From IMG/VR virus record IMGVR_UViG_2908959467_000003, positions 1 through 50,755 of that record: a stretch of 50,755 nucleotides of DNA; one strand, written 5' to 3'. The stretch is from a virus (lineage: Duplodnaviria; Heunggongvirae; Uroviricota; Caudoviricetes). The notes under the pieces are model-generated. The model saw only the letters and a program-made list of their open reading frames with translations, did not search any database and was not told the DNA's origin. Below, in pieces: positions 10,508-50,755 of the stretch. Each line of letters opens with the position of its first letter. Positions within the stretch are counted from its first letter, which is position 1. The position numbers were made by a program, and so were the translations under genes.

Positions 10508-11352
10508 TGCTCCGCGATTATCTTGATGGTTGTGGCAGTAAACGCCGCACCATTCGACTGAATGGTTAACGTACTGCCATTTGTGGCAAGAAAGCCGTCT
10601 TTATCCACGCTGAAGAATGTAGCTAACAGGATGTTGTCGGTTGTTGTCGCCGCATTACGACTGCTGACCAGTGTGTCAGGAACAGAGCCGGAAAAGGTTA
10701 GCTGCATTGATCTGTTGGTGGTTCCGCTGGGCCACGTCCCGACAATCGACAGCTTGAAGAACAAGGTTTTGTTCTCGTTGAACACAACCATCTTGTTGTT
10801 AACGGTGTCGAAGAATGGTGCCAACGTGCCGGATGACGGCGTGAGCGTTTTCAGCAGGCTAACAAGGTTGGTCGGCGCTGTCGGGATGGTTACAGATACG
10901 CCAGAGTAAACAACCTCTGACTTCTTGCGAGTAGTGGCATACTCCAGAGCATCGATGCGCGTTTCATGGTCTGAAACCTGCGATTCCAGCGACTGAACTC
11001 TGGTATCAAGCGACGCAATATCGCTTTCATTCTGAGCGATTCGCGTTTCATGTTCCTGAAGAGTTGATTCTGCCTGGCTGATTCGCTCCTCATGATTAAC
11101 AAGCGTTGCTTCCGCAGCAGAAATTCGCTGCTCATGGTCAGCGAGAATCACATCCTGCTCATCGTTCCTGACTTGTGCGTCATAAGCGCCCTGTCCGGCC
11201 TCGTTGGCCTTGTTAGCCACGTTACCAACATCAGTGCCCTGTGCGATAACGTAAAGCAGATACGACTGCGAGAAGATATTGCGTGGAAGAACTGATGTAT
11301 CGAGCCGCGTAGCTTGGATGATTACCGGCACATTGAGATTCGAATCCGCCAT
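10504..11352 (-). CDS. Tail needle, P22 gp26-like with extra C-terminal knob domain (282 aa)
   Basis: N-terminus [43 protein letters not shown].. matches recalled gp26; heptad coiled coil; about 100 extra C-terminal residues as in Sf6-type needles. Confidence 0.8.
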
Positions 11353-12770
11353 TACTCAATCCTTATCTGGCAGCCAGACAGAGTGACAGGTGACTTCGTG
11401 ATAACGCGCAATTTGAAGCCAATGTTTTTCCTGATGCGCCCTACTCTCTTCCACAAAACGCGTTTGTCGTAAACGAACGGTTCATTCTGCTCAATCATCT
11501 GCTCACGTCCGTAATTGATTCCGTCAGTGGTTGCAGAGAGAAAAAGGCGGTCGGCGTACTGCGCAACGCCAGTTGACGATTCAACCTCAAAGTCAAACAC
11601 CCTGGCGTTATCCGCTTTGAACAACGGAGTAAACAGCAGGTGTTCCTGTTGCTTGTCGTACTGGCTGCTGATGTCGAACTGCAATTTCCCGGTCACGGAT
11701 TCCAGCTTATCTCCGCACGTTATCTGATTGCCTTCGTAAATGAAGTCGATAGCGCGGTACACATCGTCATACAGGCCTGTTTTCAGTACACACCATTGCG
11801 GACCATTGGCGCTTGAAGATGCGTCGTACACCAGAACATGGCGCGGAAGATGGATAATCAGAAGCTCATGCGCATCAAATCGCAGAGATTCCATCACGCC
11901 ATCAGCCAGTTCATCAGCAGTGTAGGAGCGGAGTATTTTCTCAATGCTCGCGCTGGCGATTGGTGACACCTGACCGGAGCCGATGATGTATACAGACGGC
12001 GCACCCGTTGCCGGATTGCTGATGAACGCATACGAATCAGCAAACTGCGTTTTGCAGTAGGTTCCGGCAATGCCTTTCTGCACCATTAACGATGGCTGGG
12101 CGACATACAAAGCAGCACCAACGGTGGTTGCCCCAGTCAGGGAAAAATACTCAATCGTCGATGAACCAAAACAGACGATGAAGTCTCGCCATGTTCCGAT
12201 GCCAATGATGCCGTCAGGCTGCGATTCTGCACGATATTGTGCGCTGTAGCGGTCAGGATGCGATTCGTCTTCAAGGTCAGTGATAAACCATGAATCAGTT
12301 CCGTCTTTTGACCACGCATAACGCCCACGTAAACGCGTAATGTCGCGAACCGAACCTAACTCATACTGAGTGAATCCGCTGTCTGTAGGCCAGTTTGAGA
12401 CTGTTTTAACCGTGCCATCATAGCGATACTCGACCAGTTGACCATTAACACCTACCGCCTGTGATGTTCGACCATGCGCCATTGATACGCGACCACTTCC
12501 GGCGACGTCACCGACTTCGCTTTCTCCTTTGTACAGTTTGCCACCACACACGCGATAAACAGCATTCTGCGCCATGTTGTACTCGACGCCGCGAGATACA
12601 CCGTTCACATCAGAGCGTTTGGCAATGCCAGGGAATGAGCGAAGATATCCGCTGCTGTTCAGGATTTCTTTGGGTGTAGCCAGCATATTCACTGGCAGAT
12701 AGTCGATATAGTCGGCGTTTCGAAAGTCTTTGCCGACACCTTTCATAAGCGGAAGTTGCTGAATCGGCAT
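11352..12770 (-). CDS. Tail accessory factor, P22 gp10-like (472 aa)
   Basis: Size and synteny identical to P22 gp10. Confidence 0.8.
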
Positions 12771-39931: not shown

Positions 39932-40132
39932 ATGCAACACGAACTACAACCTGATTCACTGGTTGATTTGAAATTCATCATGGCCGATACTGGCTTCGGT
40001 AAAACCTTCATCTATGACCGGATTAAGTCCGGCGACCTGCCTAAAGCCAAAGTTATCCACGGGCGAGCAAGATGGTTATATCGTGACCATTGTGAATTCA
40101 AAAATAAGCTCTTAAGCCGCGCCAATGGGTAA
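39932..40132 (+). CDS. torI: Excisionase / recombination directionality factor, TorI/AlpA-like (66 aa)
   Basis: 66-aa winged-helix-type protein (..IMADTGFGKTFIYDRIKSGDLPKAKV..RARWLYRD..) between the two argW-like segments. Confidence 0.65.
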   Translation: MQHELQPDSLVDLKFIMADTGFGKTFIYDRIKSGDLPKAKVIHGRARWLYRDHCEFKNKLLSRANG

Positions 40133-40205
40133 AATAGCGGGTAAAATTTTTTTCACATCTAAAAAACACCATTCCAATCAATCCCCTGCCGCTTCAAGTA
40201 GATGT

Positions 40206-40220
40206 CTGCAGGGGACACCA
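40206..40220 (+). other. Putative att core: 15-nt match to the 3' terminus of argW (CTGCAGGGGACACCA)
   Basis: Exact 3'-terminal tRNA-Arg sequence including CCA; no tRNA body upstream; 160 bp upstream of the second integrase. Confidence 0.6.
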
Positions 40221-40380
40221 TGAACACTTCTCACTAAGTCCAATTAATTCCATAACTCACTGTTTTAACTGATATCATCTCCTTATACTCGTCCAGCAAA
40301 GTACCATTATTTCTAATGGAATCTATACATCTTTGCGTATAACATTGTGTATAACTGAGTTCGATCTTTTTTCTATACAC

Positions 40381-41556
40381 ATGCTGCTATCTGACATCCA
40401 AATAAAAAGAGCAAAACCGAAGGACAAACCCTATACGCTTAACGATGGTATGGGGCTATCACTCCTGATCGACACAGCGGGCAGTAAAGGCTGGCGTTTT
40501 CGCTATCGCTTTGCAGGTAAGCCTAAGATGATTTCCTTTGGCGTATATGGCGATGTGTCGTTGGCACAGGCACGTACCAAACGTGATGAAGCGCGTTCGA
40601 TGTTAGCCAAAGGGATAAACCCAAGTGAAGCCAGAAAAGCAGATAAGATTGCTTTGCAGTTCGCGCATGAGAACAGCTTTGAGTCTGTGGCCAGAGAATG
40701 GCACTCATCGAAAAAAGCCACCTGGTCAGAGGGTTATGCAAAAGAGGTTCTCAATTGTATGGAAAAGGATATTTTTCCTTTTATCGGCCAGCGCCCAATT
40801 GAGCAGATTGAACCATTAGAACTGCTAACCGTCCTGCAAAAAATAGAGAAAAGAGGTGCGCTAGAGCAAACCAGTAAGATCCGCCGCCGCTGTGGTGAAG
40901 TGCTTCGTTATGCTGTTGCCACTGGTAGAGCAAAGTATAATTTTGCACCCGATTTAGCTATCGCACTCAACAAACCTAAAACCCAACACTTCCCGTTCCT
41001 GACTGAAAGCGAGTTGCCCGAGTTCGTTAATGCTCTGGATAACTATCAGGGCAGTTTAGTTACCAAATACGCCACGCAGCTGTTGATGCTAACAGGCGTG
41101 CGAACAATTGAACTACGTGCAGCGGAATGGGCTGAGTTTGATTTAGATAATGCCTTATGGGAGATCCCCAAAGAACGGATGAAGAAACGCCGCCCCCATC
41201 TGGTTCCGTTATCAACTCAGGCGATCAATATCCTGAAAAAGCTGCAAGAAATAACAGGGAATTACAGCCTCGTTTTCCCTGGCCGAAATGACGTCAGGAA
41301 ACCAATGAGCGAAGCCAGCATCAACAAAGTGATAAAACTACTGGGTTATCACGGTCGGTTAACGGGTCACGGTTTCAGGCATACCATGAGCACCATCTTG
41401 CATGAGCATGGGTTTGAAAGTGCCTGGATTGAAATGCAGCTTGCGCATGTTGATAAGAACTCTATTCGAGGTACTTACAATCATGCGCAATATATTAAAG
41501 ATCGACAAGTAATGATGGAATGGTACGCTAGCTTATTAAATACGACCTGCTATTAA
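40381..41556 (+). CDS. Tyrosine integrase, P4 family (391 aa)
   Basis: MLLSDIQIKRAKPKDKPYTLNDGMGL.., ..RRRCGEVLRYAVATGRAKYNFAPDLA.., ..HGFRHTMST..; paralogous to the int at 1..1158. Confidence 0.85.
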   Translation: MLLSDIQIKRAKPKDKPYTLNDGMGLSLLIDTAGSKGWRFRYRFAGKPKMISFGVYGDVSLAQARTKRDEARSMLAKGINPSEARKADKIALQFAHENSFESVAREWHSSKKATWSEGYAKEVLNCMEKDIFPFIGQRPIEQIEPLELLTVLQKIEKRGALEQTSKIRRRCGEVLRYAVATGRAKYNFAPDLAIALNKPKTQHFPFLTESELPEFVNALDNYQGSLVTKYATQLLMLTGVRTIELRAAEWAEFDLDNALWEIPKERMKKRRPHLVPLSTQAINILKKLQEITGNYSLVFPGRNDVRKPMSEASINKVIKLLGYHGRLTGHGFRHTMSTILHEHGFESAWIEMQLAHVDKNSIRGTYNHAQYIKDRQVMMEWYASLLNTTCY

Positions 41557-42486
41557 ATCCAGCATGAAACAAATATGGTGAGTAATTTGATACTGTTTGT
41601 TTTTTGGCAACCCAGGGAAATGCCTTACAGTTGGTTGACTATTGTAATAATAATAGTTAAGACCAATGTTGCTGCCAAACTGGGTTGGATGTTGGGGAAC
41701 AAGATTTGTAATTTGATCTGAAACATCTAAAAATTTTGCAGTAACATTTGAACTTCCTCGTTGCGTGTTGCTTGATACAAAATGACGAATCCAAACTGTA
41801 TTCGCTTGTAAATTCTTGAACACCAAATGTGCGGCAACAGCAGAAGGTTGACCACCTCCAAGATCTAGTACCTGGCCAGTAATTGTATAATCGCCAAATC
41901 CTAAGTAATTTTGTCCCACGAATTGATGTGCGTGCGTGAAAAGTTCCGGCCCATTATAATCAGCATTTTTTGCTAACTTTCTAAAGTTATCGCTAATAAT
42001 AATTAACTTCGACAAAGGAAGAAGAGCGCACTGATTAGGAAGCATTTTATTATTTAAAACAACATGATAACTAATCAATTGATTTGTCGCCAACAACTGA
42101 ATATCAGAGTTGGATAATGATGGATTATCATATAGAAGTGCAACTCGTCTATTTAAGTTAGCATTCAACCAATTATTAATATCATTAATCGTTGTATTGG
42201 GCTGAATAAGATATCCAGAGATGATATTGTTTTTATTTGTTAATACACTTGATAAATTTTGATTTAAAGTTAAGACGTTATTGTGTGAAGAAAAATCTTC
42301 CTGATAAGGATTAAGGATAACAATTATGTCAGAATTCCAAACATTTAAACATGTTAATAAATTTCTCGTATTGACGTTAATTGGTTCTAAAATTGGTAGC
42401 AGACCATTTAGGCTAACTCCCTTCGCAACGAGGTCCCTAAGGCATAATAACTCTGTACTTCTCGCATACAAATATGGGCTATACAT
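41536..42486 (-). CDS. Cargo protein B (316 aa), unknown function; second gene of an AT-rich two-gene operon
   Basis: N/S/L-rich low-GC ORF, 21 nt after gene A; no recognised motif; 3' end overlaps the convergent int by 21 bp. Confidence 0.6.
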   Translation of the reverse strand: MYSPYLYARSTELLCLRDLVAKGVSLNGLLPILEPINVNTRNLLTCLNVWNSDIIVILNPYQEDFSSHNNVLTLNQNLSSVLTNKNNIISGYLIQPNTTINDINNWLNANLNRRVALLYDNPSLSNSDIQLLATNQLISYHVVLNNKMLPNQCALLPLSKLIIISDNFRKLAKNADYNGPELFTHAHQFVGQNYLGFGDYTITGQVLDLGGGQPSAVAAHLVFKNLQANTVWIRHFVSSNTQRGSSNVTAKFLDVSDQITNLVPQHPTQFGSNIGLNYYYYNSQPTVRHFPGLPKNKQYQITHHICFMLDLIAGRI

Positions 42487-42507: not shown

Positions 42508-43389
42508 TCAACAAATTTTAATTTTTACATCCATCAAATTCATGATGAATTCTTTTTGCTTTCTTGATAATGGTGTTGCATAACCTAAAACACGTAAACA
42601 TGCTGGAAGAGAATAAATATAATCCAAAAAAACTTTGTCGTTACATCTTTTTTTCATAGCAGAGATAAAGTATTTATTTGCTATGTTTAATGGCATCTGC
42701 ATGAATATCTCTTTACAATATTCATAAACCAATCCATTAGGCATATTTATTTTAGTTGAAGTGTAATCTTCTATTATAGCTAAGAACTCTTCCTTTCTAA
42801 GAACTGAAAACAAGCTGTCACTTTTAATATAATCAATATTTGAATCTGCCTCCTTAATGACACTCAATTGATCTTTTTTATTCAAAACCATAACTCCCAC
42901 TCTGGGGAGATTTAAAGCACAATATTTACTTGCATACTCTGGATGTGTAACTATATACACTTTATCAAAAACATCCAAATAATCAGGGGCTTGAGTAATC
43001 AACCTTTTTGGTGAATCATACTCTGTCTTAATCTCGTAAGCTGTAGACGTACCATTAAACACCGCAACATCCACTATAGAGTTTTTAATTGGTAACTCTA
43101 TGGACGACGAACTTGTTTTTGGGCTGTGCTTACCGAATATTATTTTATTGACAAGTGCTGTCTTATAAACATATTCATTTCTATAATTCAGACGCAAAAA
43201 ATCATATAATGATGTAAATAAATCCCTTAGTGAAATCTCATGTTCATTATTATCATTGTTTGAAAACAGTGTTTCATAGCAGTAAGAATCAAAACTCCCA
43301 AATAAATCCGAAATATCCTTACCTTTTGCTAAGGATGAAAAAATGGGGCGACGGAAAAATTTAGCATATTCCTTTTTATTATGACTCAT
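42508..43389 (-). CDS. Cargo protein A (293 aa), putative PD-(D/E)xK nuclease-fold protein
   Basis: ..SIELPIKNSIVDVAVFNGTSTAYEIKTEYD.. gives the E / hydrophobic-D / E-x-K arrangement; AT-rich. Confidence 0.6.
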   Translation of the reverse strand: MSHNKKEYAKFFRRPIFSSLAKGKDISDLFGSFDSYCYETLFSNNDNNEHEISLRDLFTSLYDFLRLNYRNEYVYKTALVNKIIFGKHSPKTSSSSIELPIKNSIVDVAVFNGTSTAYEIKTEYDSPKRLITQAPDYLDVFDKVYIVTHPEYASKYCALNLPRVGVMVLNKKDQLSVIKEADSNIDYIKSDSLFSVLRKEEFLAIIEDYTSTKINMPNGLVYEYCKEIFMQMPLNIANKYFISAMKKRCNDKVFLDYIYSLPACLRVLGYATPLSRKQKEFIMNLMDVKIKIC

Positions 43390-44069
43390 TACTCATACTC
43401 TATAAACATCATGCAATTTGATAAGTTATGACGAATTCTCACCATCCAGTTACTACCTGTACATACTAATCAAAAAAAACGAGTACGCAAGATACGAAAG
43501 TACTTTTCTTGTTCACCAGTTAGCTTACCTTGATCCTCACCAGCGACTGGAAGATAGGTAGCAGTATATGTGGAAACCTTCCCCTAGCTAGGTCTACAAA
43601 CGTAGTTTGGGCATTTAGGCTCCACGATTCACGGTTTGACACGGCCTGATATCTGCACATTCGTTTTGATATGCAGCAATCGTGAAAAAGGGAAAATATA
43701 CGCTCGACAGACCAAAACGGCACTACACCGCACCCGCCTGCGGTTTTCATATCACTAAAAATTTTCAGCCTGGATTTTTTACAAACGATACCGCCAGTCC
43801 GTGCCAGTCCTCGAGATGTACTGCGATACAGGAACTGAAAAGAATGAAAAGAAATTCATTTTTTTTCAGTTTTACTGTCCGTCGAATCTATGGCCTGAAT
43901 ACGCAACTCTATGATATTAAATGGATAATTAATTTTAGGTGTGTGATTTTATGAAGGTTTGTGAAACATGAAGAAGATAACCAGTTGAAAAATAATAATT
44001 TTATGACCGTATAAACTGAAATCCTGTGTTCAGGTTCCGGGAACAGATCGGCCATTCCCGACGCATACT

Positions 44070-44342
44070 TTACCCATTCTTTTGCGCAGCCAGCAGCAAC
44101 TTTAAAGCCTTTTCCCGTTCCTCGGGTGGAATTGCATCAATCAGCTCTTTAACCCTTCCCTGCCCGTTCAGCGCGCTTGGACTAACGGAATGGGAGAAAG
44201 CAACATTCATCACAAACGAGTGACCGCACTCCACATTAGAGCAATAGCAGTACACATCGTACAGTTGTGGGTGTTTCCTGTTTGTTTTACCTATCCGTGC
44301 TACTGCCTGACATGTGGGGCAGTACATTCTCATCATCTTCAT
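44070..44342 (-). CDS. ogr: Ogr/Delta-family zinc-finger late-gene activator (90 aa; start may be an internal Met)
   Basis: C-x2-C...C-x4-C pattern (MYCPTCQ..CYCSNVEC) as in P2 Ogr / P4 Delta. Confidence 0.7.
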   Translation of the reverse strand: MKMMRMYCPTCQAVARIGKTNRKHPQLYDVYCYCSNVECGHSFVMNVAFSHSVSPSALNGQGRVKELIDAIPPEEREKALKLLLAAQKNG

Positions 44343-44408: not shown

Positions 44409-44598
44409 GTGTAACACTGGTAACACGTGTAACGCTATTGATTTAAAAGGATTTAATCTGTTACCAGTTAGCAAAATCAAGAGGTAACGCGTGGTAACAC
44501 ACCATTTTTTGTTACCTCTGTTACCAGTCAGTATTTTTGACTGGTAACACTGAAGAACCGCATCAGTAACGGGTGTTACCTCTGTTACCAGTGTTACC
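44409..44598. repeat. Iteron cluster: at least 12 copies of (G)GTAACAC / GTGTTACC in about 190 bp, P4 crr/ori-like
   Basis: Repeats read directly; motif TGTTACC is one base from the recalled P4 alpha-binding octamer TGTTCACC. Confidence 0.65.
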
Positions 44599-44624: not shown

Positions 44625-47312
44625 TCACTCAGGTTCAGCGCTTCCCAGTACCTGTGTATTGAACTGGTACACACGTTTAAGCCCTATTTCTGGCAGGCGA
44701 ATGCTGTTTTGCGTCCGGCCATCTTCACCGGGTTTCAGCCAGCCCGCGTCCACACACAACCTGGCCACCTTACGCGAGTCAAATCCCTTACAGATCTCCT
44801 TCCAGCCTGACGGGAGAACGTAGAACGTCACAACCGGCTCTGTCACGTTGTCTCCTTTATCGACTTTTCTGAATCCCATCATTGAAACAGGCCGGTTCCT
44901 GTCGTCATTCCAGTCAGCAAACCGACTGAACTGATTACGCGTCATGAAGTCCCGAACCTGTTCAAGTGCCGCTTTATCTTCCTGATTAGCTGTATGGCCC
45001 CGGTCAGCCATCCATGCAGCCAGACAGCTTTGAGCGGCACGAAAGGCCTCTCCCTCCGGCCATCCTGTGATGCCCGCTTTTGTGGCCAGCTCCCCGGCCA
45101 TCGCAACCAGAGCAAAACGGGTAACAGCCCGGCCAACCTGATTCCCGGCATTTTCCGGCGTCAGCCTTCGGGTATACTCTTTCAATAAGGCTTTCGCCTG
45201 ACTGGTCAGTTCCGGCAGATCAGCGGTCAGGCAATACAGCCAGTCGCGGAATGGTGCACCATGATAATGCGCTACGTGCTGCTCAAGATGCTCAGCCAGG
45301 GTTTTCCCGCTACTGAAGCCATGAAGTTCTTCAAACACGCCATACTTGCCCGAATCGCTTGGGATCTGGATCATTCTGACCTCAACCCCGGCATACGTAC
45401 GTTCCCCGGCGCTTGCCGCATGCTCTACCAGTGACAGTTCCCCGGTAGACAGAAACAACAGATTCCAGCGGTTGGTTTCCCTTACCGAACCATCTGTTCT
45501 GGCTCTGGCTTTGCCCTGCCCGTTAGCCAGCATATAAGCGATATTCCCCGCCTCCCTGCCGTCAACCTCCCGGATTTCATCCAGCATCAGCGTGGCATCA
45601 TTGCGGCGGCTCGCCGTTCCTTCTAAGGCATTCCCCGTCGCCCGCCACGTATGCCAGAAATCTGTTCCACCACATACTGATGCAGCCACTTTCATCGTCG
45701 TGGTTTTACCGTCTGTGGATTCCCCTTTGAGGTGATAACCTCCACCGCCGATACCAACCAGTTTCAGAAGGGGGGCAGCAAATGCCAGACTCACCGCAAA
45801 GGCAAGACGGGCATTCTTTATGCAATAACGGCCTATATTTTCACGCCAGCCCTCTGATGTGCCGCTGACACGAAAATCACGCCCCTGCACACTCGATGTT
45901 TGTAAGATGACTGACTGGGCTTCGCGCCCTATCACTTCATCCTGGAGAACGTAAACCCCGCCGTGCCAGCCAGTTTTATTCACACAGGTTACTTTTCTGT
46001 CCGGTTTACACAGCGAGATATATTCCATCAGGAATGCTCTGGCCATGCCATTAATGTTGATGTAAGAAAGCCCGTTAACCAGCAGAACGCGGCGCAGTTC
46101 TTCCCCGCTACCGCCCAGCATCTCCATCGGCATTGCCCATTTACGGCTGTTTCCGTTGGTATCTTCCCATTCCAGCAAACGCCCGTAATTACTTCCATCA
46201 GCATCACTGGTGATTGCCGTCACCCGCAACGGACTGCAAATTTTGATATTACGTATCTCTGTATCACCATCAGACTTATTAACCAGCTTGTCGTACCACA
46301 AATATTCTTTTGTCAGCCGGAACCCTTCTGGTAAACGGGTCTGCCCTTTGCCATGCAGCGTCATTTCTTCACGAAAGGCATCTCTCGCCCGTTCTTTCCC
46401 CACTTCCTGCCGATAATCATCCCAGTCAGCCTTATGGCGTACCGGAGGGAGCGTTACCCAGCCATCCACCGCTTTGGCGGCTTTCTCTGCCTGAATACGC
46501 CCGGTGTTTTCTTTGCCGTCAGCCAGATCATTATCTCCGGCCAGAATGATCCGAGTTTCCGGCCAGCGTTTTCGGATCTGCTCCGTCACCTTCAGTAAAT
46601 TGGTGGCAGCGACAGCCGCCACGATCCATCCTTCAGTCAGCAGACTGACGGTAAGCGCCGTGGCAAAACCCTCAGTGATAATCACCTGTTCAGGTGTTTC
46701 AGCGGGTATATCGGTCAGGGCAATGAATGCGCCAGACAGCTGGCTACCGGGCAGCAGACTTTTATCCCCGTCAGGATTGATAAGCTGGCCACCAGTAATA
46801 TTCCCGGAAATATCCGTCAAAGGCAGCAGTAATGAACCGGTGGAAAATGTTATTCCGGCCAGATTCAAAGGCTGTGACAGCAAGGGAAGTGAATACCCGT
46901 GTAAGCCCTTATTTGTCAGATAGACCGGCTCACCATTGCAGGACTGCTGTCTGAGTCTGGTATATCGCTCCGCGCCCGCTTCTTTTCCTGCGGCCTTTTT
47001 CCTGGCTGGCAATGCGGGCTTCTCCTGTATTTCTGGTAATGCAAGCGCCTCAGATACCATCCCGGCGACTTCTTTTATCTTTCTTCCTGTCACCAGACGA
47101 ACCAGATCAAGACCATCGCCATGACCGCACTGATTACAAAACCACGTCCCTCGCCCCGCTTTATCGTCCAGTCGAAAACGATCTTTTCCACCACAGGCAG
47201 GGCAAGCCCCATGATGTCCTGCGGACGGTACTTTAATACCTAATGCTGACAGGATATAAGGCCAGCGCCCAATTGCAGCTCCGGAAATCGTGGATACAGA
47301 CGGTGTTTTCAC
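44625..47312 (-). CDS. Primase-helicase, P4 alpha-type (895 aa)
   Basis: N-terminal zinc-binding primase motif (CPACGGKDRFRLDD..WFCNQCGHGDG), central P-loop (GESTDGKTTT). Confidence 0.85.
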   Translation of the reverse strand: MKTPSVSTISGAAIGRWPYILSALGIKVPSAGHHGACPACGGKDRFRLDDKAGRGTWFCNQCGHGDGLDLVRLVTGRKIKEVAGMVSEALALPEIQEKPALPARKKAAGKEAGAERYTRLRQQSCNGEPVYLTNKGLHGYSLPLLSQPLNLAGITFSTGSLLLPLTDISGNITGGQLINPDGDKSLLPGSQLSGAFIALTDIPAETPEQVIITEGFATALTVSLLTEGWIVAAVAATNLLKVTEQIRKRWPETRIILAGDNDLADGKENTGRIQAEKAAKAVDGWVTLPPVRHKADWDDYRQEVGKERARDAFREEMTLHGKGQTRLPEGFRLTKEYLWYDKLVNKSDGDTEIRNIKICSPLRVTAITSDADGSNYGRLLEWEDTNGNSRKWAMPMEMLGGSGEELRRVLLVNGLSYININGMARAFLMEYISLCKPDRKVTCVNKTGWHGGVYVLQDEVIGREAQSVILQTSSVQGRDFRVSGTSEGWRENIGRYCIKNARLAFAVSLAFAAPLLKLVGIGGGGYHLKGESTDGKTTTMKVAASVCGGTDFWHTWRATGNALEGTASRRNDATLMLDEIREVDGREAGNIAYMLANGQGKARARTDGSVRETNRWNLLFLSTGELSLVEHAASAGERTYAGVEVRMIQIPSDSGKYGVFEELHGFSSGKTLAEHLEQHVAHYHGAPFRDWLYCLTADLPELTSQAKALLKEYTRRLTPENAGNQVGRAVTRFALVAMAGELATKAGITGWPEGEAFRAAQSCLAAWMADRGHTANQEDKAALEQVRDFMTRNQFSRFADWNDDRNRPVSMMGFRKVDKGDNVTEPVVTFYVLPSGWKEICKGFDSRKVARLCVDAGWLKPGEDGRTQNSIRLPEIGLKRVYQFNTQVLGSAEPE

Positions 47313-47719
47313 AGCAGCACCTCCTGACCTTCCGGCTTCACAAATTCAAAACCTTCGGGTAGTTCGCCATCAGGTGCTCCGAAAATAATATCCCGGTAAA
47401 CCTCACGCATCTCTGTGACACCAAAAACTGACAGGCGAATATTTTCTGACATAAAGCCTGGTTTAAGCATTTTTTCCAGTTTCTCTGCGGCCAGTATGCA
47501 ACCAGCATCAGCCCCAAACTCATTCACCCACGGCATTTCAATATGGTAAATAATATTACTCACCACTTTTTCGTGGGAGAGTTCTATTCGTTCGCCATCT
47601 TCAATATAAACAGGTTCATTATGAACACGCACCATTAAGGAAATGAATGCATCAGCAATGTAGTAGCGTAAGACTGCTGTTCGTAAAGCATGCGCCTTTA
47701 AATTTTGATTATTATTCAT
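47309..47719 (-). CDS. Hypothetical protein (136 aa) upstream of the primase
   Basis: Overlaps primase start; position analogous to P4 epsilon/orf151. Confidence 0.45.
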   Translation of the reverse strand: MNNNQNLKAHALRTAVLRYYIADAFISLMVRVHNEPVYIEDGERIELSHEKVVSNIIYHIEMPWVNEFGADAGCILAAEKLEKMLKPGFMSENIRLSVFGVTEMREVYRDIIFGAPDGELPEGFEFVKPEGQEVLL

Positions 47720-47948
47720 CGCGCATCACTCCCTTAATTGTGCTGGTTTCCTTAACAACGCCATCCAGTTGTTCGGCAATACAGGCCACTAAAGCCGCAG
47801 CGCCTTCCGCTGAAACAGTTCTCGCTCCATTCACTGTGGGCACGGACAAGACCTCTGCAAGAAACTCACTGGCCAGTGCCGCCCGTAACAGACGACTCTC
47901 CCCCTGTTCACTCAATATGCAGCCTTGCTTAAAATTCATGGATTTCAT
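47712..47948 (-). CDS. Hypothetical protein (78 aa)
   Basis: Operon member; no motif. Confidence 0.4.
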   Translation of the reverse strand: MKSMNFKQGCILSEQGESRLLRAALASEFLAEVLSVPTVNGARTVSAEGAAALVACIAEQLDGVVKETSTIKGVMRDE

Positions 47949-48148
47949 GCAACCACCTCCCCGGCTCTTTTCACAGGGATACGGGCAGCAAAGCTCAGGA
48001 TAAATTCAGTGGCAAGTTTAAGGCGTGCAGCATGCTCGCATTCTGCGATTACACGCACAGGGCGTGGACGGGCATCACGGTCTGTACGGCGGACAGCCAG
48101 AAAGACAAAGGTAAATTCAGGGTGAGATAAAGCAGGGACTGTAGCCAT
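47945..48148 (-). CDS. Small hypothetical protein (67 aa), first gene of the alpha operon
   Basis: ATG at 48148 with GAAGGAGG RBS; the longer track ORF to 48535 is an unsupported extension. Confidence 0.4.
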   Translation of the reverse strand: MATVPALSHPEFTFVFLAVRRTDRDARPRPVRVIAECEHAARLKLATEFILSFAARIPVKRAGEVVA

Positions 48149-48160
48149 AATGGCAACCTC

Positions 48161-48425
48161 CTTCAGATAGCGGGTAACGCTACCACCGGAGTTCCTACGC
48201 TCATGGGTGGTAGCCCAGACGGGGGTAGGAATACCGGCTCTGAAGGATACCGGCCAGCCCGAAAGCTGCCCCGCCTGGACTACCATAATTCTGATGATGT
48301 GGCGTAAAAAATAAAAAAATACAATCAGCCACCACACCATAAATTTTAGGTGAGTCAAAGCTGCGACACAAAAAAACACGCCTGGCGCGTGTAGTATCGC
48401 CTTCAGATAACACGGGTTCCTACGC
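48161..48425 (-). promoter_or_regulatory. Candidate RNA immunity region (P4 seqA/cI/seqC-like) with internal terminator
   Basis: Two direct copies of CTTCAGATA..GTTCCTACGC (48401..48425, 48161..48200) flank a reverse-complement copy (48225..48247); hairpin + U7 at 48370..48392. Confidence 0.4.
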
Positions 48426-48577
48426 CCGGCTGCCGATTTTGCGGCAACCTTTAAACTATATCCCGCGCATTCCTGGTGAGGCAAGAAATTTATAACCGAA
48501 AACTGATCATTGCCTGGATTAATTAACGCTGGCATGCTTAAGCCTCTGCTTAAAAATAGTTCTTCATTTTTCCTGAT

Positions 48578-48608
48578 GCTGTAAACGAGACCCGCCTCTG
48601 AGCGGGTC
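48578..48608 (-). terminator. Hairpin terminator after capsid-like gene
   Basis: Minus-strand GACCCGC-UCAGAG-GCGGGUC followed by UCGUUUAC. Confidence 0.45.
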
Positions 48609-48622
48609 TTTCTGTCGCTAAG

Positions 48623-49627
48623 TCAATCCGCAAACGTCAGGGCGCTCTCATCGACAGCCGCGTACAGTTCAGGTTCACCGAGTGCATAACCTTCATTGCG
48701 CAGGTAGGAATGCACGTATTCACTGCTTTCATCATCAAACTCAGCACGAAACCAGCGTGTTATCGCCTGAGTGTAAATATGCAGATTATCCAGCGTCGTT
48801 ACTGCCAGACGCTTACCCGGCATAAACGGGGGAATAAACGCAAAGCGGCCAGCAACAGAACTTGTAGCCATCTGTGCCGCATTCACATCAGACGGGCGGT
48901 CTGCGGCATTAAATAACTTCAGGCGTTGATGTGCTGCCAGCTCTGCCCCAACCAGTACAACCAGACGAGGATCTTCACGAAACTGCTCAGCAATAAGCTC
49001 TGTAATCAGATGGTTGGCCAGAGCATCAATATTTTTCCAGGTGCCAGTCTCTCCCAGAGTGACAGGCTCAGAGATGATTTGCTTTCCGTTCCCGTAGGCT
49101 TTCGCCAGTGCATGCCAGCCAATATTGACATCCTCGCCTTTTTTATTGATTTCCGGGTTTGTAGTATTTGCAATCGACACACCATTGAAACCGACCCGCA
49201 GCATGTCCAGCGCATATGCCTGGGCAAAAAAGCTCTCAACCGTTTTCTCAAACTCATCCGGCACGCCGGTATGGTAAATATGAGACATATCGGAATAGCT
49301 GATCCGGGCGCAGGTATCCGTCTCTGTCAGAAAGAACTCCGTACCATTGATTGCCATTTTTTTGTGGAAACGGCCACCATCCACACGTCCGGTATACAGT
49401 TCACTGGCACCAATATTGACGGCATTACCTGACACGGCGTTAACATCACGTAGGGTAATATTTTTAATAAGCCACCCGGATTCCAGAATTGAGGTACGCA
49501 GTATATTTTCAGTAGGTTCGCTTAATGCAAAGCGTCTGTTTGATTCTTCCTGATAGTTAGTGCCAGTGACGAATTTATTATGATAACGACGTGCTGCGTC
49601 CGGCCTTTCAGTTTTGAAGGCATACAT
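48623..49627 (-). CDS. P2 gpN-family major capsid-like protein (334 aa)
   Basis: Blocks alignable to recalled P2 gpN (GFNGV, ..IGW.., DALANHLITELIAEQFREDPRLVVLVG, LDNLHIY); from memory, unverified. Confidence 0.5.
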   Translation of the reverse strand: MYAFKTERPDAARRYHNKFVTGTNYQEESNRRFALSEPTENILRTSILESGWLIKNITLRDVNAVSGNAVNIGASELYTGRVDGGRFHKKMAINGTEFFLTETDTCARISYSDMSHIYHTGVPDEFEKTVESFFAQAYALDMLRVGFNGVSIANTTNPEINKKGEDVNIGWHALAKAYGNGKQIISEPVTLGETGTWKNIDALANHLITELIAEQFREDPRLVVLVGAELAAHQRLKLFNAADRPSDVNAAQMATSSVAGRFAFIPPFMPGKRLAVTTLDNLHIYTQAITRWFRAEFDDESSEYVHSYLRNEGYALGEPELYAAVDESALTFAD

Positions 49628-49649: not shown

Positions 49650-50510
49650 TTAAGAAAAGATTTTATTTTTGTACTCAGTAACCAGATTGTATTTCATTAC
49701 ATGCTCAACATAATCCCGGTCACTTACGACTGAACGTAATACATAATTATCTGCTCGATAGTACTCCCTGTAAGCCATAGCTCTTGCCATTCCACCGTTA
49801 TTTAATACATAACGATCAGTTGGAACGCTACAACGACTAATAATTTCACTCACGGAATCAGATAAAGACTTGAGTGCATCAGTAATAAATTTAATATCAC
49901 GGACAACGTCACTGTCATTAAATACAGAAATAAAATCAGCAGGGATCTGGCCGGATTGAGGAAATATATTCAGTAAACGCTTATCGATTCCCTTCCCAAT
50001 GTAGTTTCCTTCATCGGCCAGTACTCCCGGCAAAAGCTTGATCGTGCTCAATCGACTATGTTGTTCATTCAACCGGGAAACAGCCAGATGGTAATACCGT
50101 TCAGCATCCGCTCGTTCAGCATGCCCCATTTTATTCGTTTTGGCTTCAGCAATGCTACTGACGCCGTTTTTTGAGAATGTGCTTTTCCATGCAACTTCCG
50201 CATTTGTCACTTCACGCTGCCGGAAAGATAACTCTTCCTCTTCCTGACGACACAACTGGGCATAACGGCTCAGGAGCAGGTTGATCTCATTCGCCACAGT
50301 TTCCGTATCAGGTACTGTTAACCCCGTAAGTGAATACAGCTTTTCACCTTTAGCTCGCAGCTTATTCAGTGAATATATTTCAATAATACGCACAATACAG
50401 GCCGTGTCGCTATGAGTCTCTTTAAATGATCTTACTTTGTAACTATCTAACACCGACACATGTTCGTTCTTAATTGATGCCAATTTCTTCTTAAAAACAT
50501 TGTCAACCAT
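49650..50510 (-). CDS. Hypothetical protein (286 aa), AT-rich, unknown function
   Basis: Low-GC ORF between AlpA and the capsid-like gene; no recognised motif. Confidence 0.5.
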   Translation of the reverse strand: MVDNVFKKKLASIKNEHVSVLDSYKVRSFKETHSDTACIVRIIEIYSLNKLRAKGEKLYSLTGLTVPDTETVANEINLLLSRYAQLCRQEEEELSFRQREVTNAEVAWKSTFSKNGVSSIAEAKTNKMGHAERADAERYYHLAVSRLNEQHSRLSTIKLLPGVLADEGNYIGKGIDKRLLNIFPQSGQIPADFISVFNDSDVVRDIKFITDALKSLSDSVSEIISRCSVPTDRYVLNNGGMARAMAYREYYRADNYVLRSVVSDRDYVEHVMKYNLVTEYKNKIFS

Positions 50511-50527: not shown

Positions 50528-50755
50528 TTAGGAGTTTAATTTTCTATTGAGAATATTCTTCTCTATCCATTCATTAACTTCATGCTCCACCCATGCAACA
50601 GAACGAGAACCGATAGAAACTTGGTTCGGAAATTCATCATTCTTTATCTTTAGATAAATTGTTGACTTGGGTAAGCCAGTCAAATTAATCACTTCTGATA
50701 TTCTCAGAAGTCTATATCTTTTTTGGGGTGCGTTTTCCCGAGGCAATAAGCTCAT
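50528..50755 (-). CDS. alpA: AlpA-family transcriptional regulator (75 aa)
   Basis: ..RLLRISEVINLTGLPKSTIYLKIKNDEFPNQVSIGSRSVAWVEHEVNEWI matches the AlpA HTH signature; start codon is the last 3 nt of the window. Confidence 0.75.
   Translation of the reverse strand: MSLLPRENAPQKRYRLLRISEVINLTGLPKSTIYLKIKNDEFPNQVSIGSRSVAWVEHEVNEWIEKNILNRKLNS

Follow-up and report, generated by a model that had tools for sequence, protein, structure and literature searches.

A P2-family major capsid protein gene in an 11-kb P4-related element, probably a satellite of ESSI-2-like phages

The 50,755-nt stretch of viral DNA studied here (IMG/VR record IMGVR_UViG_2908959467_000003, positions 1 to 50,755; hereafter the window) carries near its right end an 11-kb integrative element with a regulatory backbone like that of satellite phage P4. 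The gene at 48623-49627 of this element encodes a full-length major capsid protein (MCP) of the P2 family with the HK97 fold, not a remnant of one. We think it probable that this gene is the working capsid gene of a satellite that parasitises ESSI-2-like P2-type phages. The satellite MCP, and probably also the product of the adjacent gene orf286, would make small capsids or redirect assembly towards them. The element is apparently a widespread and undescribed variant of phage satellite. An earlier note on this DNA, made from its letters alone, had left two explanations of the gene side by side, namely a satellite that supplies its own capsid protein and a mosaic with a P2-type head-gene remnant.

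The capsid protein and its lineage

That note had recognised a capsid-like gene of the P2 gpN family between AlpA and the immunity region, and both the family assignment and the flanking genes hold up. The MCP matches PF05125 (Phage_cap_P2) with 225.6 bits against a cut-off of 27 (E = 1.1e-66), the alignment spanning profile positions 16-325 of 327, and it also matches PHROG 70, 'major head protein' (2.6e-86). On the TIGR01551 equivalog it scores 204.7 bits, slightly below the cut-off of 219.65 and thus outside the curated equivalog range. Sequence searches of the PDB return the phiRSA1 capsid (7OZ4, 2.5e-21) and P2 gpN in the P4 procapsid (7JW1, 2.8e-16). The AlphaFold model is of modest confidence (pLDDT 62), and with it Foldseek ranks 7JW1 at the top (1.9e-15) and 7OZ4 next, ahead of encapsulins and other HK97-fold capsids. 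The HK97 fold, which the note had named as the check on its assignment, is thus recovered both from the sequence and from the model. A Shine-Dalgarno sequence, AAGGTG, lies 8 nt 5' of the ATG.

The protein belongs to the same Pfam family, has the same fold and is of about the same length as P2 gpN and the MCPs of ESSI-2-like phages (Seongnamvirus and Quadragintavirus). Its closest phage relatives are the MCPs of Cronobacter phage ESSI-2 and the Escherichia ESSI2_ev phages, with 49% identity over the full length. Identity to P2 gpN is only 25%, and many proteins in Enterobacterales genomes are closer to the window MCP than gpN is. Unlike the ESSI-2-like genes, however, the satellite gene lies outside a head module, and its product belongs to a separate, more divergent clade. 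Its neighbours are orf286 and the RNA immunity region, not a scaffold gene upstream and a small terminase gene downstream. We surveyed the best 80 of 147 species-representative loci and classified them by marker proteins. About 24 of them show a satellite context, (AlpA)-orf286 family-MCP-(orf78/orf136)-primase-Ogr/Delta, with variable cargo and with an integrase where the contig reaches it. In 52 loci the context is that of a phage, ogr-portal-TerL and then scaffold-MCP-TerS-head completion-sheath, which is the ESSI-2-type head module. The series scaffold-MCP-TerS occurs in all 52 phage loci (with a gpO-type match in one), apart from contigs that end there, and in no satellite locus.

Identity to the window MCP is 51-99% for the satellite-context proteins and 45-53% for the phage-context proteins. 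In a neighbour-joining tree of 78 MCP sequences, rooted on P2 gpN, the satellite proteins are monophyletic in 100 of 100 bootstraps and are sister to the MCPs of ESSI-2-like Peduoviridae, with no intermediates. Median identity is 56% within the satellites versus 72% within the phages. Comparing the two clades, 82 alignment columns are conserved and identical in both, and nine differences are fixed, four of them in a single helix (residues 229-239). In P2, gpO cuts off the first 31 residues of gpN, i.e., after F31 (PMC7552001), and the residue aligned with F31 is invariant among the satellite MCPs aligned. Satellite-specific changes were also sought in the 'sir loop' of gpN, the region that governs size in P2/P4 (PMC7552001). 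This candidate was rejected, as the nine fixed differences correspond to gpN positions 239-329, outside residues 183-224.

No untruncated member has a shortened MCP frame, and pairwise dN/dS of the gene is 0.05-0.18. Of 5426 complete E. coli genomes, 718 contain the alpA-orf286-MCP segment, 420 of them at 99% identity or more, and at least 24 species, ranging from Escherichia to Xenorhabdus, Proteus and Providencia, share the gene order. Because the frames are intact, dN/dS is low, the clade is monophyletic and the segment is prevalent in E. coli, we conclude that selection has kept the MCP gene in the satellite lineage. Together with the helper-type cos and the constrained size described below, these data support a satellite with its own capsid protein and lead us to reject a mosaic with a head-gene remnant. 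The survey of homologous elements that the earlier note had suggested gave one gene order and one MCP clade for the satellite-context loci.

The constant partner of the MCP gene, orf286, is confined to these elements. Its 105 homologues are all from Enterobacterales and all unannotated, and a set of 1.84 billion proteins yields only 53 cluster representatives; the proteins from Yersinia and Providencia truly belong to the family (hhalign 99.5% and 99.3%). The AlphaFold model of orf286 is all helical (pLDDT 87.6), and neither fold nor sequence matched P4 Sid, P4 Psu, P2 gpO, the ESSI-2 scaffold or any solved structure. The orf286 profile gave hhalign probabilities below 1% against Sid and Psu. 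From its linkage to the MCP gene, we infer that orf286 may be a scaffold or a size-determination partner. Pairwise dN/dS of orf286 is 0.09-0.27, except for one close pair at 0.82. This outlier pair comes from Kosakonia/Phytobacter satellites (L016/L017), in which the adjacent MCP has a dN/dS of 0.18, and orf286 may have undergone rapid or diversifying evolution in this single pair.

A third gene joins MCP and orf286 in the branch that comprises Yersinia, Pectobacterium, Brenneria, Rahnella, Xenorhabdus, Proteus and Providencia. The gene that follows MCP there encodes a 173-177-residue counterpart of gpO that has the N-terminal protease half but not the C-terminal scaffolding half. The columns equivalent to P2 gpO D19, H48 and S107, which we take to be its catalytic triad, are invariant among these fragments. 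Examples lie at 11011-11532 in locus L004 and at 11017-11550 in locus L006, the others being recognised by GPO_N matches. The Enterobacteriaceae branch, including the E. coli window, lacks the gpO fragment, and a search of the window for a GPO_N remnant found none. The earlier statement that only one capsid-type gene can be recognised is therefore right for the window, but not for the family, in which orf286 is an obligate partner and relatives also encode the gpO protease domain.

The cos-like site and the likely helper

Of 50,697 GenBank phage records, only those of ESSI-2-like phages match the cos-like region of the element (Table 1), with identities of 72-90%. In ESSI-2 the match runs over the point where the two ends of the linear record meet, and 15 nt (GCGGGTGCGGTGTAG) are repeated at both of these ends. 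In addition, the independently assembled record of ESSI2_ev015 breaks inside the 19-nt core, GCAGGCGGGTGCGGTGTAG. This core is found ~600 bp downstream of Ogr/Delta in 22 of the 24 satellite loci, the other two being contigs that end earlier, and it is invariant although the satellite MCPs have diverged to ~50% identity. A short-query search of GenBank phages located the core in ESSI-2-like phages only, apart from chance-level matches. It is related to, yet different from, the cos sequence of P2/P4, GGCGAGGCGGGGAAAGCAC.

Other features of the element point to the same phages. The satellite Ogr/Delta gene has ~69% nucleotide identity to ESSI-2 gp32, and the Yersinia satellite Ogr/Delta has 52-66% protein identity to the ogr product encoded beside the portal gene in the phage loci. 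Between the att repeats, the element measures 10.9-12.1 kb in seven genera despite varying cargo. ESSI-2-like phage genomes are 28.8-30.9 kb long, so that the element has ~37% of the length of its presumed helper, near the P4/P2 ratio. Six genomes contain both the satellite and an ESSI-2-like prophage. Because the cos core is shared, Ogr/Delta is homologous, the size is constrained and the MCPs are sister groups, the element can be read as a satellite of ESSI-2-like phages, and these phages, not P2, are its likely helpers. P2 was considered as a helper and rejected for its 25% MCP identity and its different cos sequence. The prophage next to the element (window ~1-40200) was rejected likewise, being P22/IME10-like and not P2-type.

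More than 120 metagenome contigs contain the exact 19-nt core as well, and most of these show neither satellite nor ESSI-2 head markers in the stretch that was fetched (L114-L193). Two core-bearing metagenome contigs (L126 and L164) have P2 Q/P-like genes nearby, and the core may be used by further phage or satellite lineages. The ESSI2_ev015 record (NC_049395.1, L113) starts with a Nextera transposase adapter (positions 1-48, …TCGTCGGCAGCGTCAGATGTGTATAAGAGACAG) at the physical DNA end, and the genome proper begins inside the cos core after this adapter contamination.

Proposed mechanism, rival explanations and known satellites

In the mechanism that we propose, helper infection or induction would lead to expression of alpA-orf286-MCP, the primase and Ogr/Delta, and the element would excise and replicate. 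The satellite Ogr/Delta would switch on the helper late genes. The helper would provide portal, terminase, head-completion proteins, tail and lysis functions and, in the E. coli branch, also the gpO scaffold-protease, and its terminase would recognise the helper-type cos site of the satellite. Without a Sid-type external cage, the MCP paralogue, probably together with the all-alpha orf286 product, would build the shell, or redirect it, to a small capsid. Such a capsid, which by analogy with P4 may be T=4, would fit 11-12 kb and exclude the ~29-31-kb helper genome. The satellite MCP may form the whole shell or, as with Ccm of SaPIbov5, may occupy particular positions such as pentons. The orf286 product may act as a scaffold, inside or outside the shell, or in some other way.

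Several observations weigh against this mechanism. No member of the family is found among deposited phage records. Packaged monomers were looked for in the IMG/VR and metagenome contigs retrieved and were not seen: the IMG/VR matches are prophage-region predictions, and the metagenome contigs include neither terminal repeats nor informative cos-ended 11-kb contigs. The MCP gene lies in the alpA operon behind a sigma-70-like promoter, without a recognisable Ogr-type late promoter. The 'sir loop' (gpN residues 183-224) holds no fixed satellite-specific change, the role given to orf286 follows from linkage and the protein has no detectable similarity to any scaffold, and the 19-nt core is shared with many unclassified metagenome contigs. 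Moreover, ESSI-2-like prophages are found in 29-48 and the satellite in 439-718 of the 5426 complete E. coli genomes. Because these prophages are ~15 times rarer than the satellite, contact with the helper would mostly occur by infection.

The main rival to a capsid-building role is that the MCP serves interference only. It would then be a poison subunit that joins the helper MCP during assembly, so that helper capsids abort or come out at the wrong size, and would thereby protect the host population. Interference with the helper is common among satellites, and it was as an interference factor that Ccm was discovered (PMC5052747, PMC8569155). Furthermore, 46-49% identity to the helper MCP makes co-assembly plausible, the element also has a defence hotspot, and purifying selection would be equally expected. 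We nevertheless consider interference alone unlikely. The conserved helper-type cos and the tight 11-12-kb size point to packaging in a small capsid of defined capacity, and the co-inherited orf286, with a maturation protease in one branch, resembles an assembly module more than a lone poison subunit. PADLOC defence models match neither MCP nor orf286. Interference and self-packaging are compatible in any case, and both occur in Ccm.

A place for the MCP outside the virion seems very improbable to us, since the P2-family architecture is complete down to the N-arm and the residue that aligns with the gpO cleavage site, a capsid maturation protease has stayed beside the MCP in one branch, and cos, Ogr/Delta and size are all typical of a packaged satellite. 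Under such an exaptation, MCP and orf286 would form an encapsulin-like compartment, or would act as a sensor or bait for defence or satellite induction. Its arguments are the encapsulins that follow the two capsid entries in the fold search, as they do for any HK97-fold protein, the co-transcription of MCP with the regulator alpA with no obvious late operon, and the lack of known relatives of orf286. The idea of a decaying remnant of a P2-type prophage head module, left without current function in a mosaic island, is effectively refuted. It could appeal to an isolated head gene without portal or terminase and to the score slightly below the TIGR01551 equivalog cut-off, but decay does not agree with full-length frames under dN/dS of 0.05-0.18, with fully supported monophyly and the same gene order in more than 20 species from Escherichia to Xenorhabdus, or with the frequency and near-identity of the module in E. 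coli.

The textbook case of capsid piracy is that of P4 and P2, in which P4 encodes no capsid protein and uses Sid and Psu to shrink and decorate the capsid of its helper. Like P4, the element is ~11 kb long, integrates at a tRNA gene by a tyrosine integrase, has AlpA/Vis upstream of a C4/CI-type RNA immunity, and possesses an Ogr/Delta-type activator and a helper-type cos with an adjoining defence hotspot; its likely helper is also of the Peduoviridae. The likeness extends to a hotspot gene, the cII of P4 itself being annotated as sce7726-family. Unlike P4, the element lacks sid, psu and epsilon, has a helicase half of the DUF927 type, and has all its genes except int in a single array of one direction, in which Ogr/Delta follows the primase gene. 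Its cos is GCAGGCGGGTGCGGTGTAG and not GGCGAGGCGGGGAAAGCAC, and it carries an MCP gene and orf286, neither of which P4 has.

We compared the element with the seven components that SatelliteFinder takes as the core of P4-like satellites, for which Type C is N-2 (PMC10085698). Integrase, AlpA and a Delta-type activator are present by Pfam. The N-terminal 320 residues of the primase are 39% identical to P4 alpha, whereas the C-terminal half, with DUF927, has no similarity to P4 alpha. BLASTP of orf78 against P4 epsilon gave nothing and that of orf136 against P4 orf151 nothing significant, and no ORF of the element matched Sid or Psu in Pfam or PHROGs. The element therefore holds at most four of the seven P4 components, below Type C. 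Calling it P4-like, as the earlier note did, is justified for int, AlpA/Vis, the C4-type RNA immunity, the primase domain and Ogr/Delta, and not for the helicase domain and cos, which differ, or for sid, psu and epsilon, which are absent.

Satellites with capsid genes of their own offer a closer functional comparison. In SaPIbov5, Ccm is an MCP homologue that occupies pentons and gives T=4 capsids (PMC8569155), and PmCI172, which makes small capsids, likewise encodes a homologue of an MCP (PMC6092414). Like SaPIbov5 of S. aureus, the element would be a cos-packaged satellite with a paralogue of its helper's HK97-fold MCP and without portal or terminase; as in the Ccm type, it encodes a 49%-identical paralogue of the MCP of phages that share its cos. 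SaPIbov5 differs in its Gram-positive host, its siphovirus helper and its MCP family. The two lineages are unrelated, so that the functional likeness is not homology. In contrast to Ccm with its penton occupancy, the element always has orf286, and some relatives have a protease. The phage-inducible chromosomal islands that form capsids (cf-PICIs) are likewise enterobacterial and combine int, AlpA and a primase with a capsid protein of their own (PMC10085698). They encode MCP, portal, protease, head-tail adaptors/connectors, TerS and TerL and rely on the helper for tails alone (PMC10085698), whereas the element has only MCP (MCP and a protease domain in relatives), and this of the P2 family. 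With no portal, adaptor or terminase genes, it is not a cf-PICI.

A literature search gave no description of a P2-family MCP in P4-type satellites, although its coverage was incomplete and it is weak evidence of novelty. We tentatively suggest that the elements could form an undescribed satellite family of ESSI-2-like Peduoviridae, 'capsid-encoding P4-relatives', in which capsid size might be set by the satellite's own MCP paralogue and a new-fold scaffold, orf286, and not by a Sid cage. If so, they would be an evolutionary intermediate between thieves of whole heads (P4) and full head builders (cf-PICIs), a second solution to capsid piracy in the same phage family by a lineage that dropped or never had Sid/Psu, and a counterpart of SaPIbov5 Ccm among Gram-negative bacteria. 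About 13% of complete E. coli genomes contain the capsid module, which is spread across Enterobacterales and has probably been overlooked. Because at most four of seven P4 markers appears to fall below the thresholds of satellite finders, satellite censuses and defence-hotspot surveys may undercount such elements. The system is tractable, with an E. coli host and candidate helpers already isolated.

Layout, transcription and neighbours of the element

The host DNA is that of E. coli, and an identical element is present in E. coli D6, where 20-nt direct repeats, ATTCCTGCAGGGGACACCAT, lie exactly 11,000 bp apart, the left one forming the 3' end of tRNA-Arg. In the window, the attL-side copy forms a hybrid with the adjoining P22-like prophage's att site. 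Beyond the right end of the window, the D6 copy has only ~450 bp before attR. Starting from int, the order is sce7725/7726 cargo, cos, Ogr/Delta, primase-helicase, orf136/orf78, C4/isrK RNA immunity, MCP, orf286 and AlpA (Table 1). No portal, terminase, protease, head-tail adaptor or connector gene was found between the att sites, where MCP is the sole recognisable head gene. The single capsid-type gene without portal, protease or terminase, as described in the earlier note, is thus a feature of this part of the window and of the whole D6 element, and the sequence right of the window, to which the note had referred for further morphogenesis genes, adds none.

Table 1. Features of the element, in window coordinates
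Feature	Position	Strand	Basis or detail
attL-side copy	40202-40221		D6 20-nt repeat with 2 mismatches (0 matches expected by chance)
Tyrosine integrase	40333-41556	plus	Pfam Arm-DNA-bind_3, Phage_int_M, Phage_integrase
Cargo pair, sce7725-family and sce7726-family	41536-42486; 42508-43389	minus	NCBIfam NF033831 (1e-71); NF033832 (1e-51)
cos-like region	43693-43870	minus	Core GCAGGCGGGTGCGGTGTAG at 43723-43741
Ogr/Delta-type zinc-finger late-gene activator	44070-44342	minus	PF04606, 5e-14
Iteron-like direct repeats	44457-44592		Between Ogr/Delta and primase genes
Primase-helicase (alpha-like)	44625-47312	minus	Zn_Ribbon_Prim, Toprim_3, DUF927
orf136 and orf78	47309-47719; 47712-47948	minus	PHROG 5991 and PHROG 38507; conserved small ORFs
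P4/P1-type RNA immunity module	48203-48461	minus	C4 48203-48290, isrK 48371-48448, a1/b1 targets 48409-48461
Promoter-like site	48455-48484	minus	Promoter scan
GC-rich hairpin AGACCCGC-N6-GCGGGTCT	48588-48609	minus	14 nt past MCP stop codon, read from sequence
MCP gene, 334 aa	48623-49627	minus	Pfam, PHROG, TIGR01551, PDB-sequence and Foldseek matches
orf286, all-alpha protein	49650-50510	minus	Always directly upstream of MCP gene
AlpA/Vis-type regulator and excisionase	50528-50755	minus	PF05930, 5e-20

A non-coding stretch of 680 bp lies between the Ogr/Delta gene and the cargo pair. The direct repeats on the other side of Ogr/Delta consist of TGTTACCTCTGTTACCAGT, which occurs twice, 64 bp apart, and of a related 32-nt pair (families D2 and D4, L001 10058-10193, offset +34399 to the window), and may mark a replication origin or cis-replication region. 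The small genes orf136 and orf78 are found in most satellite loci. In the RNA immunity module, C4 (RF01695, 81 bits) and isrK (RF01394, 69.5 bits) exceed the Rfam gathering scores, and the a1b1 model (RF03163) reaches 43.8 bits in the window, slightly below its gathering score of 46.7. A C4-type module recurs in six of seven related satellites tested.

Transcription of the capsid gene would start upstream of alpA, the first gene of the alpA-orf286-MCP unit. Gaps of 17 and 22 nt separate the genes of this unit, which overlap in relatives, and a sigma-70-like motif, TTTAC-N17-TATAAG, is conserved among members upstream of the operon. An Ogr-type late promoter, TGT-N12-ACA, was considered upstream of alpA or MCP and rejected, as it is not conserved across members. 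The hairpin behind the MCP gene is a candidate terminator of the unit; the terminator scan did not call it, and its T-tract is weak.

Overlapping the C4 and isrK RNA genes, RefSeq annotates a 196-aa 'Icd-like' ORF (47945-48535), and the 48-residue Icd-like model covers only residues 141-188 of it. The annotated ORF is probably too long, the true Icd-like peptide being its C-terminal part, at ~47969-48115. In D6, RefSeq places the integrase beside tRNA-Arg with a start at the equivalent of window position 40381. Between the alpA promoter region and attR, D6 also has a (GGGCT)n microsatellite of ~12 units (L001 16620-16684, ~270 bp past the window).

The cargo genes have a GC content of 0.30-0.36, and the sce7726 member matches the PADLOC model 'cll' (1e-18). 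Related satellites hold Kiwa (KwaAB), DndB or HATPase genes in the same slot beside cos, which is a defence hotspot like that of P4. Integrase placement also varies. In eight loci (L012, L013, L015, L017, L022, L023, L026 and L028; ~6680, plus strand), an integrase ~60% identical to that of the window sits 5' of alpA, co-directional with it and beside a tRNA gene; some loci have an integrase at both ends, and that of the window instead converges from the far end. These alternative positions imply swapped integration modules or tandem satellites.

The rest of the window (1-40221) is a P22/IME10-like prophage of ~40 kb, which shares the argW-type att site with the satellite and lies in tandem with it. 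Over 79% of a 25-kb query the prophage is 96.6% identical to phage IME10, and it has a 385-aa integrase gene at 1-1158. A 66-aa ORF at 39932-40132 was read by eye as a TorI-like excisionase; NCBIfam gave no match for it. The arrangement in D6 is different, with tRNA-Arg followed by the satellite and then by an IntS/CPS-53 remnant.

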